A stretch of DNA of 64,000 nucleotides from an uncultured Chloroflexia bacterium (GCA_963760735.1 CAVXEB010000007.1:543930-607929); one strand, 5' to 3'; shown: positions 30,991 through 33,158, counted from the first letter of the stretch. Notes: generated by a model from the sequence alone, not told the origin. Numbers and translations: made by a program.

Positions 30991-31611
30991 TCAGCGATCC
31001 GGGGCGCCGGCGGGCGCGCCCGCCTCGCCGACCGGGCCGCCCTGGACGTTGACCGGCCGCGGAATCCCGAGCCGGTCGAAGACCTCGAGAATCCAGTCGC
31101 CCTTTTCGGCCTGGTAGCGGACCGCGTCGACCGGGCCGCCGTCGGGTCCGGCGATGTCGGACTTGACCCGCGCGTAGCCGTCGCGGAGCTCAGGGTCCTC
31201 GCGAAGAGCGTCCCGGAATCGGAGGTCCTTGTCGAGGTCGGCGGTGCCGTGCGGCTGGACGTGGAAGTGGATCCGGTGCTCCTCGCCGTCGACGACGATC
31301 GACCCGACGAGCATCGGGCGGGTCGGCGGCCACGGAGCGGGTCCCGGCTGCGGCCCGAAGCCGAGGCCGTACAGATCGGTCCTGATCGCCGGGATGTCGG
31401 CCGGGTCCACCTCGGTGCCGAGGTCGATGATCCCCTTGCCGGGCAGACCCGGGACCGCGGTGCTCCCGATGTGCTCGATCTCGAGCTCGGGTCGGACCGA
31501 GTGGACGATCTCGGTCACGCGCGCCGCCGCGATCTCGTACTGGGGATCCCACGGACGGACGCTCGCGGCGCGGCGCTCGTACGGACCGATGGGCGTCGGG
31601 GTCGTGGGCAC
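30991..31611 (-). CDS. GrpB family protein
   Basis: IEHIGSTAVPGLPGKGIID, FRDALR, YQAEK. Confidence 0.88.
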   Translation of the reverse strand: MPTTPTPIGPYERRAASVRPWDPQYEIAAARVTEIVHSVRPELEIEHIGSTAVPGLPGKGIIDLGTEVDPADIPAIRTDLYGLGFGPQPGPAPWPPTRPMLVGSIVVDGEEHRIHFHVQPHGTADLDKDLRFRDALREDPELRDGYARVKSDIAGPDGGPVDAVRYQAEKGDWILEVFDRLGIPRPVNVQGGPVGEAGAPAGAPDR

Positions 31612-31637
31612 GGGACGAAGTGTAGAGTTCGGCGATC

Positions 31638-32339
31638 ATGCGCCGTGTCATCGGCCGGCGACTCCACGAGGTGGACGTCGGCTAACTCGCCCATCGGACG
31701 GCAGACGCCGATCGAGTCCTCGTCGACCTCGGCACCGGTGACGGTCGGGTCGCCGTCGGCCTCGCTCGTCGGAGACCGACCGACTTCGTGATCGGCCTCG
31801 ACGCCAGCGCCGCGGCGATGGCCGAGATGTCTCGTCGTGCCGCCCGGCCGCGGTCGAAGGGCGGCCTGCCGAACCTGCTGTTCGCCGTTTCGGCCGCCGA
31901 GTGCCCGCCCCACGACCTGTGCGGCCGAGTCGATGAGGTGACTGTCCTGTTCCCGTGGGGCTCGCTGCTGCGGGGCCTGCTTGCCCTCGATCCGGCCGCC
32001 GCCGGCGGGCTGGCGGCGCTGCTCGCGCCGGCCGGCATCGTCCGCGCGCTCGTGTCGATCGCCGACCGCGATCGGGCGGCCACCGACCTCCGACCGCTGA
32101 GCGCAGCCGACCGCGACGACCTGGCCCGACGGTGGGCGAAGTTCGGCCTCTCGGTCGTCGCGTTCACGCCGGCATCGGACGAGGAGGTCCTCGCCTCCGG
32201 CTCCAGCTGGGGCCGCCGCCTCCGAGCGGGCGAACGAGCCCGCTCGCGCGACTCGATCACCGATCGAGCGGTCTGGCGGATCGAGCTCCGACACCAGACG
32301 CCACGGGTGTCGATTGGACGGTCCGATGACCCGCGCTAG
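31638..32339 (+). pseudogene. KamB/NpmA-like 16S rRNA (adenine1408-N1)-methyltransferase with in-frame TAA at 31683-31685
   Basis: MRRVIGRRLHEVDVG*LAHRTADADRVLVDLGTGDG...GLDA...KGGLPNLLF...LFPWGSLLRG...SSWGRRL matches Kam/NpmA motifs from recall. Confidence 0.75.
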
Positions 32340-32351
32340 AATCTCGCGACC

Positions 32352-33158
32352 GTGCGTCGCCTCCCGGTCCGCCGCCTGCCCCGCCCCAGCGCCCTGGTCG
32401 TCGCCGCGATCACGGCGCTGACGCTCGCGCTCACGAGCGGTCCGTCCCTCGCGCCAGCTCCGACGGTTTCCGCGGCGACCACGACGCGATTTCGCATCGA
32501 CACCGCCCGCACGGGAGACTTCGTCGCCCAGGCGAACTTCGTCCAGTGCGTCGGGGCCAGCATGCAGATGATGCTGAACATCATGAACCCACGGAACGAC
32601 CGCACGGCCACCACCCAGCGACGACTCCAGTCGTTCGCGCGCGACCTCTCGGGCCCGACCCGGGAAGGATTTGCCCGGAAGGGCGCCAGCGTCCGGGGCT
32701 GGTCGGCCGGGCTCAACAAGCTGGGTGCCGGGCCGTACCGCCTCGTCGGGACGACGACGCTCGCGGAGGCGATGCGGCTCGCCGCGGTCTCGATCCGGAA
32801 CACGGGCAAGCCGGTCGGGCTCCTCGTCTGGGCCGGTCGCCACGCATGGGTGATGAGCGGGTTCGAAGCGACGGCGGACCCCGCCAGGACCTCGACGTTC
32901 AAGGTGACGAAGGCGATCGTGATGGATCCGCTCTATCCCTACGGCTCGAGCCGCTGGGGCGCCAGCCCGAGACCGCGCGAGGCGATCACGACGGCGACAC
33001 TCGGCAAGCAGTTCGTGCCGCGCCGCCGCGGAATGTGGGCCGGCGCGGTCTCGAGCACCGAGAGCGCCGCGACGATGAACGCCCTCGCCGGTCGCTACGT
33101 CCTCGTGCTCCCGTACCGGCTGGTCCTTCTCGCCCGCCACCGCAGCGTCGCCGCCTGA
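32352..33158 (+). CDS. Secreted papain-like (C39-like) peptidase-fold protein
   Basis: Signal peptide; Q...CVGASMQMML, HAWVMSG, DPL (Cys-His-Asp order). Confidence 0.6.
   Translation: MRRLPVRRLPRPSALVVAAITALTLALTSGPSLAPAPTVSAATTTRFRIDTARTGDFVAQANFVQCVGASMQMMLNIMNPRNDRTATTQRRLQSFARDLSGPTREGFARKGASVRGWSAGLNKLGAGPYRLVGTTTLAEAMRLAAVSIRNTGKPVGLLVWAGRHAWVMSGFEATADPARTSTFKVTKAIVMDPLYPYGSSRWGASPRPREAITTATLGKQFVPRRRGMWAGAVSSTESAATMNALAGRYVLVLPYRLVLLARHRSVAA

Follow-up and report, generated by a model that had tools for sequence, protein, structure and literature searches.

The window analysed here, a stretch of 64,000 nucleotides from an uncultured Chloroflexia bacterium (GCA_963760735.1 CAVXEB010000007.1:543930-607929), contains on its plus strand a methyltransferase gene (31638-32339) with a stop codon close to its beginning, and the question it raises is whether the gene is broken or whether the stop belongs to it. 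The reading frame opens with an ATG (31638-31640), runs through 15 sense codons (MRRVIGRRLHEVDVG; 31638-31682), meets TAA at codon 16 (31683-31685) and is then open from codon 17 to codon 233 (31686-32336), where it ends at TAG (32337-32339). An earlier note on this DNA had described a TAA at 31683 interrupting a frame that extends further upstream, and direct reading of the window bears this out. The same note had remarked that the open reading frame (ORF) track holds the C-terminal 183 residues alone, and this is also the case: the sole ORF listed by mechanical calling starts at a GTG (31788-32339; protein database entry P0002, 183 aa). Judged from its sequence, that ORF alone could not work as an enzyme, because the GTG at 31788 lies past the S-adenosylmethionine (SAM)-binding loop.

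Comparative sequence analysis gives firm support to two conclusions: the window gene belongs, as an intact copy, to the WarA-type clade of aminoglycoside-resistance methyltransferases that act on 16S rRNA (m1A1408, N1 methylation of A1408; Kam/NpmA family), and the stop is a selected feature of the whole clade, WarA as a clinical enzyme among them. Rather than damage, the stop probably represents a built-in means of controlling the amount of enzyme.

Family and predicted fold of the read-through product

When the gene is read through the stop, with X placed at codon 16, a product of 233 aa is obtained (P0001). It scores 167.9 bits against the Pfam NpmA family (PF24675; cut-off 60 bits), with residues 2-201 lying on profile positions 1-205 of 214. 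Among the NCBIfam models, WarA scores highest at 171.2 bits, followed by KamB (131.1 bits), NpmB (88.3 bits) and NpmA (64.9 bits). The product falls under the equivalog cut-off of WarA (305 bits; NF051863) and under the exception cut-offs of KamB (350 bits; NF000363), NpmB (460 bits; NF040634) and NpmA (470 bits; NF000030). The best match among solved structures is KamB (PDB code 3MQ2; E 8e-29), aligned from residue 1, and then come NpmB1, CacKam, Kmr and NpmA; identity to the solved m1A1408 methyltransferases is 23-35%. The earlier note had assigned the gene to the KamB/NpmA-like m1A1408 family and had said that best hits to TrmB or other methyltransferases should overturn this. No such hits were obtained, TrmB reaching 18 bits against the 167.9 bits of Pfam NpmA, and the assignment is upheld by the Pfam, NCBIfam and structure matches. 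A family feature that the window gene lacks is an uninterrupted coding frame, owing to the TAA at codon 16, which is kept throughout the clade.

The AlphaFold2 model, calculated with 43 read-through relatives, has a mean predicted local distance difference test score of 90.2, although a model of this kind may lean on the solved family members. The model agrees with the class I methyltransferase fold of the family, including its extended β5/6 and β6/7 linkers. Strands 2-5 and 8-11 form a β-hairpin, a helix follows at residues 18-23, and the codon-16 site falls within the loop that joins the two. In Foldseek the top 19 matches are all m1A1408 methyltransferases (template-modelling score, TM, to KamB of 0.83/0.89); the next family appears at E 1e-10, eleven orders of magnitude behind. 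The motifs named in the earlier note were all located in the methyltransferase body, namely the SAM loop DLGTGDG (31725-31745), GGLPN, FPWGSLL (31950-31970; Trp107) and SSWGRRL (32202-32222; Trp191 and Arg194). Gly32, Gly34, Gly36, Trp107, Trp191 and Arg194 are invariant in the 43 sequences, and the last three align to the KamB motifs PWGSLL and SWTRRL. According to the accessible part of the KamB report, Trp105, Trp193, Arg196 and Arg201 are critical in that enzyme (PMC2995053); the equivalent of Arg201 could not be placed with confidence in P0001. That this predicted enzyme methylates A1408 and confers aminoglycoside resistance is supported indirectly, by the association of warA carriage with amikacin resistance in Nocardia (PMC12488653).

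Retention of the stop at codon 16

A search with P0001 over 60 related genomes found matches from residue 1 with one in-frame TAA in 28 of the 36 other genomes of the genus; the eight genus genomes without such a match are 68-89% complete. Six-frame reading of 20 loci placed the TAA at codon 16 in every one, within an invariant EVDVG-stop. At the level of the family, the Pfam model found the gene in 150 of 401 genomes (30 of 49 genera), and all but ten of about 150 rows have exactly one stop, TAA or TAG. Sixty family loci were fetched (L002-L061), of which 56 have the stop (40 TAA, 16 TAG) and four a sense codon. A stricter extraction, which required the motifs to be in frame, retained 53 of these 56 (L020, L024 and L033 were dropped by the motif filter only), and counts out of 53 below refer to this set. 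In a phylum-wide control, 23 of 35 rows, all from other families, have no stop; the 12 rows with a stop comprise seven from the window's family, two from sister families of the class and three from two other families. The five stop rows outside the window's family were inspected: four share the Asp-Val-Gly-stop site, whereas in L217 two stops come after Asp-Pro-Gly. As a further control, the G1405 (FmrO) methyltransferases of the same 401 genomes show no stop in 83 of 84 rows, so the in-frame stops are not an artefact of the assemblies or of the search. These genus, family, phylum and FmrO counts include the unpublished genomes G010, G141, G196, G248, G473 and G576. As a side observation, G1405-type genes occur in 72 of the 401 phylum genomes and in none of 22 sampled from the window's family, in which A1408-type genes are frequent.

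Beyond the phylum, a degenerate DNA pattern combining the stop site and the SAM loop matched at least 120 stretches in species-representative genomes. Among the 80 matches listed, most are Candidatus Limnocylindria or other Chloroflexota metagenome-assembled genomes (MAGs), and further ones are Nocardia sp. NPDC050793, Actinomycetota MAGs, an Egibacteraceae MAG (example L153, which rests on the unpublished genome G812) and a Binatia MAG. The gene is present in 17 of 251 Nocardia genomes, 16 with one TAA and one with two TGA, in the arrangement MRIV[CS]GKKIR[DE]VD[VI]G-TAA with a -10-like hexamer directly 5' of the ATG. By this comparison, the stop at codon 16 is retained in more than 100 bacterial species, clinical Nocardia included. 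When metagenomes were scanned with any of TAA, TAG, TGA and TGG permitted at codon 16, at least 120 matches were obtained, with 80 TAA, 25 TAG and 8 TGA in frame; among the matches listed, seven of the eight TGA look genuine, all followed by Phe, and the two TGG are both spurious low-complexity sequences. A rule that the site is never TGA, suggested by its absence from the 53 sequences, was dropped in view of the approximately seven genuine TGA variants among the metagenome matches listed. Finding three stop codons at this one position, with sense codons virtually absent, among proteins as little as 40% identical is in our reading of the alignments the signature of a selected stop.

A sequencing or assembly error at 31683, which the earlier note had left open, is excluded by the 56 of 60 related loci and by an independent soil-metagenome contig (1002 nt, ∼95.5% identical, run X1, covering 31304-32303) that has no difference at 31683-31685; dozens of independent assemblies carry the stop at the same codon, and the probability of an error is negligible.

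In the tree of 99 sequences, a branch with a Shimodaira-Hasegawa-like approximate likelihood-ratio support of 98 separates all 84 stop-bearing sequences and six sense variants from nine uninterrupted outgroups, and the Nocardia clade is nested within the stop-bearing side. This topology is compatible with a single origin of the stop, about five losses then being needed. TAA and TAG have been exchanged at codon 16 at least twice (six times by parsimony). The residue at the stop position in sense relatives is Glu, Gln, Asp, Ser, Trp, Ala, Gly or Arg, mostly Glu or Gln in the uninterrupted ones; the sense variants inside the clade have Glu, Ala, Gly, Gln or Arg (one of them, L222, rests on the unpublished genome G248). 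The choice of stop also opposes genome usage: among 2410 confident long ORFs of the window's genome, 1890 end in TGA, 470 in TAG and 50 in TAA, so that TAA is the rarest stop there. At the true gene end, 51 complete copies among L002-L061 have TAG in 32 cases and TGA in 19, to be set against the 470 TAG ends in 2410 genome ORFs; this bias could reflect shared ancestry or a link to the internal stop.

The earlier note had also suggested a silenced resistance gene, one substitution from reactivation, which would make the locus a decaying pseudogene. The in-frame TAA and the lack of a downstream start in the window agree with this, as do the extra stops in a few relatives (a stop followed by TTC-TGA in L201 and L217) and the truncation of some family-list matches. 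It is contradicted by the persistence of a stop at codon 16 in several phyla, with 56 of 60 loci and 17 of 17 Nocardia copies having it and stop-to-stop substitutions occurring, and by the conserved downstream frame, which is unbroken in all 53 extracted sequences (for which, as stated, motifs in frame were required). The ratio of nonsynonymous to synonymous substitution rates (dN/dS; Nei-Gojobori) over codons 28-200 comes to 0.39 for the genus and 0.48 for the full set of 53 sequences, figures that are likely to be overestimates in a genome of 71% G+C, and the catalytic residues are invariant. In the accessible part of one study, moreover, carriage of warA tracks amikacin resistance (Cramer's V 0.89; PMC12488653). 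We regard decay as very improbable. The two double-stop copies are unrelated to each other: L201 (G885, Nocardia) has TGA TTC TGA and L217 (G634, Chloroflexota) has TAG TTC TGA. In another observation on the relatives, L019 (G019, the window's genus) and L058 (G258, another genus) encode identical methyltransferase proteins, which may result from a recent transfer or from a binning mix-up.

Decoding of TAA and TAG as an amino acid, by a suppressor tRNA or a reassigned code, would fit a site that is mostly TAA or TAG and not TGA. Against this, ARAGORN finds no TTA or CTA anticodon among 57 tRNAs in the window's genome (92% complete), TAG and TAA end 470 and 50 of the 2410 confident ORFs there, and a motif search revealed no second gene in that genome with the same stop context. 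TGA variants of the site exist, and the same feature occurs in cultured Nocardia, which are generally known to use the standard code. We consider altered decoding extremely improbable. Two observations were made during these searches. At C7:189346 on the minus strand of the window's genome there is an Asp-Val-Gly-TAG flanked by open frames with high third-position G+C content, 50 codons before and 280 after; this is probably the end of one gene followed by another in the same frame. The ARAGORN output also contains three tRNA-SeC(tca), three tRNA-Gln(ctg) and no transfer-messenger RNA; the tRNA-SeC calls may be false positives.

Translation of the leader and proposed use of the stop

Codons 1-15 are homologous to the N-terminal β-hairpin of KamB and NpmA: HMMER aligns the product from its residue 1 to KamB, and the Pfam profile is entered at its position 1. 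Comparison of the codons indicates that the leader is translated, because Gly6, Arg7 and Arg8 are kept despite synonymous variation, each through four synonymous codons. In the stop clade the leader is the most conserved part of the protein (mean pairwise identity 71%, versus 61% for the core); in the uninterrupted relatives it is the least conserved (28% versus 53%). The conserved stop context is GAG GTG GAC GTC GGC TAA CTC (Glu-Val-Asp-Val-Gly-stop-Leu; 31668-31688). Asp, Val and Gly before the stop are each present in 53 of 53 stop-bearing sequences and Asp-Val-Gly is lost in all six in-clade sense variants, so this context is, on the alignment, tied to the stop and not to the fold of the enzyme. 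The Val codon at position -2 is GTC in 53 of 53 (background 0.65); at -4, where 48 sequences have Val, 40 use GTG (background 0.26). Synonymous-site constraint peaks at codons 12, 14 and 15 and at codon 26; the synonymous-site and binomial p-values ignore relatedness among the relatives and are overstated. Codon 26 (31713-31715), an Arg ten codons past the stop, has the strongest synonymous-site signal in the gene, with CGG in 42 of 46 against a background of 0.30. Immediately 3' of the stop, all 53 sequences encode a hydrophobic residue (Leu, Val, Phe or Ile), as in KamB, NpmB1 and CacKam. Further downstream, residues 17-27 have 42% identity, compared with 40% for residues 121-200 and 27% for the same stretch in uninterrupted relatives. 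A readthrough gene is expected to keep its stop in relatives that have diverged and to show coding constraint before and after it, and both are found here.

Translation appears to begin at the first nucleotides of the message. The -10-like hexamer TAGAGT (31623-31628) lies 9 nt 5' of the ATG with no Shine-Dalgarno (SD) sequence between; 50 of 53 relatives have a TAnnnT hexamer that ends 6-10 nt 5' of the ATG, whereas a control window placed 40 nt farther 5' contains one in 1 of 53, and an SD-like core precedes the ATG in four of 53. Because the hexamer adjoins the ATG without an SD sequence, the mRNA is indicated to be leaderless, the promoter being placed by the TAnnnT hexamer; a generic σ70 scan of the window did not call the 31623-31628 site. 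Leaderless starts may be common in the window's genome.

The reading that we favour for the stop is that the full-length enzyme arises only by stop-codon readthrough, which would hold expression at a trace level; on the comparative evidence we judge its chances to be even. The ribosome would initiate at the 5'-terminal AUG and make a 15-residue peptide, and most ribosomes would terminate at the UAA. Rare near-cognate decoding of the stop would yield the full-length methyltransferase, and this gating would keep a costly ribosome-modifying enzyme very low. Fitness costs of m1A1408-type enzymes are reported, together with a rise in translational accuracy caused by KamB (PMC12406665).

The principal alternative is a leader peptide followed by restart, in which a 15-codon leaderless upstream ORF is regulatory and the ribosome re-initiates downstream, for example at a Val codon 11 codons later, to give an N-terminally shortened active enzyme, the ∼190-aa form annotated as WarA. 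In favour of restart, the leader is far more conserved than in sense relatives, as regulatory leader peptides are, and the WarA profile, 190 positions long, sets in at residue 27 when laid on the read-through proteins. The KamB hairpin is moreover reported as non-critical (PMC2995053), and GTG at +11 exceeds its background among the Val codons and is present in eight of 13 Nocardia copies. In the window, however, there is no in-frame ATG, GTG or TTG between the TAA and the GTG at 31788, past the SAM loop; the earlier note had offered a protein restarting near 31710, and no start codon exists there. Over the stretch from the stop to the SAM loop, 26 of 53 sequences have no ATG, GTG or TTG, a share that we count against restart and that, by our own estimate from the codon figures, is about what Val codon usage alone predicts; the other 27 mostly have GTG at the Val at +11. 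At the corresponding codon 27, 13 Nocardia copies have GTG in eight, GTC in four and GTT in one. Because 26 of 53 lack a canonical start and the codon varies in Nocardia, restart is by this survey not the conserved solution, and it is predicted to be impossible in this window. No SD-like sequence or conserved hairpin was found ahead of any candidate restart, the leader is in frame with the body and keeps the Gly-Arg/Lys hairpin residues of uninterrupted homologues, and residues 17-27 retain protein-like conservation. Restart is accordingly a minority possibility. Two related candidates were rejected. An internal SD sequence with a start might be seen in GAGGTG, for which the Chloroflexota sequences show enrichment ahead of the stop; Nocardia does not conserve this hexamer, and it leads to no start codon. 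A requirement for frameshifting was dismissed, leader and body sharing one frame.

Several observations weigh against readthrough. Of the three stops, UAA is normally the most resistant to readthrough. Codons 17-27 have a dN/dS of 0.73-0.99. The search for conserved RNA structure around the stop gave none, the alifold consensus being nearly empty (-3.3), and conservation resides in the primary sequence or peptide upstream of the stop, not in a downstream stimulatory structure. About 18 family-list rows match only the first 120-148 profile positions; these may be frameshifted copies or long-read errors, the matches in G009 and G026 have a second piece in another frame, and many of the assemblies, which have few contigs, may carry indel errors. 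At +11, GTG is mildly enriched, accounting for 20 of 46 Val codons where the background is 0.26 (p 0.008, with no correction for relatedness). The soil-metatranscriptome contigs X15 and X16 extend over no more than 31503-31653, together with 36 nt of conserved sequence from a relative, and show neither transcription of the gene nor its 5' end. The N-terminal hairpin of KamB was judged non-critical, R8A behaving as wild type, in the accessible part of that report (PMC2995053). The hairpin being dispensable and the WarA profile representing the post-stop ORF, a short form could be active if it can be started.

Readthrough would also allow the gene to respond to the drugs against which its product acts. 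Aminoglycosides bind at A1408 and cause phenotypic suppression. They would provoke readthrough of the stop, so that drug-bound, unmethylated ribosomes would make more enzyme; methylated ribosomes would no longer bind the drug, would terminate faithfully and would shut synthesis off, giving a self-limiting sensor. Termination at codon 16 would be tuned by the invariant nascent peptide that ends in Asp-Val-Gly, and the gain in accuracy reported for KamB would add negative feedback. Amikacin induces stop-codon readthrough in E. coli reporters, as stated in the accessible part of one report (PMC10959953). That the conserved stop is a sensor of aminoglycoside-induced miscoding at UAA/UAG, in soil bacteria and in clinical Nocardia WarA alike, is a tentative proposal, and we hold it to be somewhat doubtful. 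Convergent stops were not found in the G1405 (FmrO) methyltransferases of the 401 genomes, which also counts against it: since that family shows no such stops (83 of 84 rows), a general sensor design has no convergent support.

WarA, the surrounding locus and known systems

The WarA equivalog cut-off is passed by eight of 12 Nocardia proteins read with X (305.4-347.3 bits), and the 190-position profile starts at residue 27 or 28 of these read-through proteins, that is 11-12 codons past the stop. WarA is reportedly a determinant of aminoglycoside resistance in N. wallacei, as Hershko et al. are said to have described in 2024 (Int J Antimicrob Agents). No paper describing the in-frame stop, the leader or readthrough in warA or NpmA-family genes was found, although the original WarA report lay outside the search and may mention them. 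In Nocardia loci L195 and L199-L214 there is a conserved AT-rich GAAAAT or GAAATT followed by CGGATGCGC, ∼30-45 nt before the ATG and 5' of the -10-like hexamer; we take this to resemble the AT-rich site beside the -35 element of WhiB7-dependent resistance promoters in actinobacteria.

The earlier note had seen no aminoglycoside cluster or mobile element nearby, in agreement with the housekeeping-type Pfam families of nine neighbouring ORFs (NUDIX, α/β-hydrolase, PurE, GrpB, glyoxalase and nucleoside hydrolase). No conserved partner gene was found, the neighbours being of housekeeping type and differing between genera, and tblastn gave no match to plasmid relatives in PLSDB at E 1e-5. The downstream gene (32352-33158) encodes 268 aa with no Pfam family and a signal-peptide-like N-terminus. 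A -10-like TAGAAT ends 9 nt 5' of its GTG (32315-32352) and is the sole promoter-like site called by the scan.

WarA-type genes explain the intrinsic amikacin resistance of the Nocardia transvalensis complex, and the databases hold only their post-stop ORF, with a start that varies among gene callers. If the gene starts 26 codons earlier and is gated by the stop, annotation, resistance catalogues and expression constructs would start at the wrong place, and the level of resistance may depend on translational fidelity and drug exposure. To our knowledge, selected in-frame stops in ordinary bacterial genes are rare, apart from selenocysteine, pyrrolysine and RF2; here one is kept across phyla at codon 16 of a gene whose product modifies the decoding centre. 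Were the sensor proposal true, it would represent a new class of antibiotic-inducible resistance control that uses induced miscoding instead of induced stalling, and mistranslation as a cellular signal, a long-discussed idea, would become directly testable. More generally, 'broken' resistance genes in metagenomes deserve a comparative check before they are dismissed.

The window protein can finally be compared with known systems. The solved m1A1408 enzymes KamB (3MQ2), NpmA (3MTE), NpmB1 (7EHF), Kmr (4RWZ) and CacKam (4X1O) share its fold (TM 0.75-0.84), the N-terminal hairpin and the SAM loop, as well as the two Trp residues and the Arg that are critical in KamB, with N-termini aligned from residue 1. 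They differ in having uninterrupted frames, with Glu at the stop position in the three alignments shown. WarA of N. wallacei is the best NCBIfam match, and the WarA-grade genes of Nocardia nest in the stop-bearing clade of the window gene and resemble it in the 15-codon leader, the Asp-Val/Ile-Gly-TAA and the -10-like hexamer before the ATG. Unlike WarA equivalogs, the window protein scores 171 against 305 bits and comes from an uncultured soil Chloroflexota whose relatives are named Candidatus Limnocylindrales; the WarA profile (NF051863) covers the post-stop part only.

In translational attenuation by drug-sensing leader peptides, as known for erm, cat and cmlA, a hairpin change frees the SD sequence and start of a second ORF located downstream. 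The window gene is like these systems in placing a short conserved upstream peptide ahead of a ribosome-drug resistance gene, with drug action that would switch expression on. It is unlike them in having no conserved hairpin, SD sequence or start and in having a leader that is in frame with, and homologous to, the N-terminus of the enzyme; a downstream ORF with its own SD sequence and start masked by an alternative hairpin, as in erm/cat attenuation, is not present. The gene prfB (RF2) offers another likeness, namely an early conserved in-frame stop, here often after an SD-like GAGGTG that is not conserved in Nocardia, by which expression is coupled to the handling of a stop; prfB needs a +1 frameshift, whereas in the window gene the frame is the same on both sides and plain readthrough would suffice.

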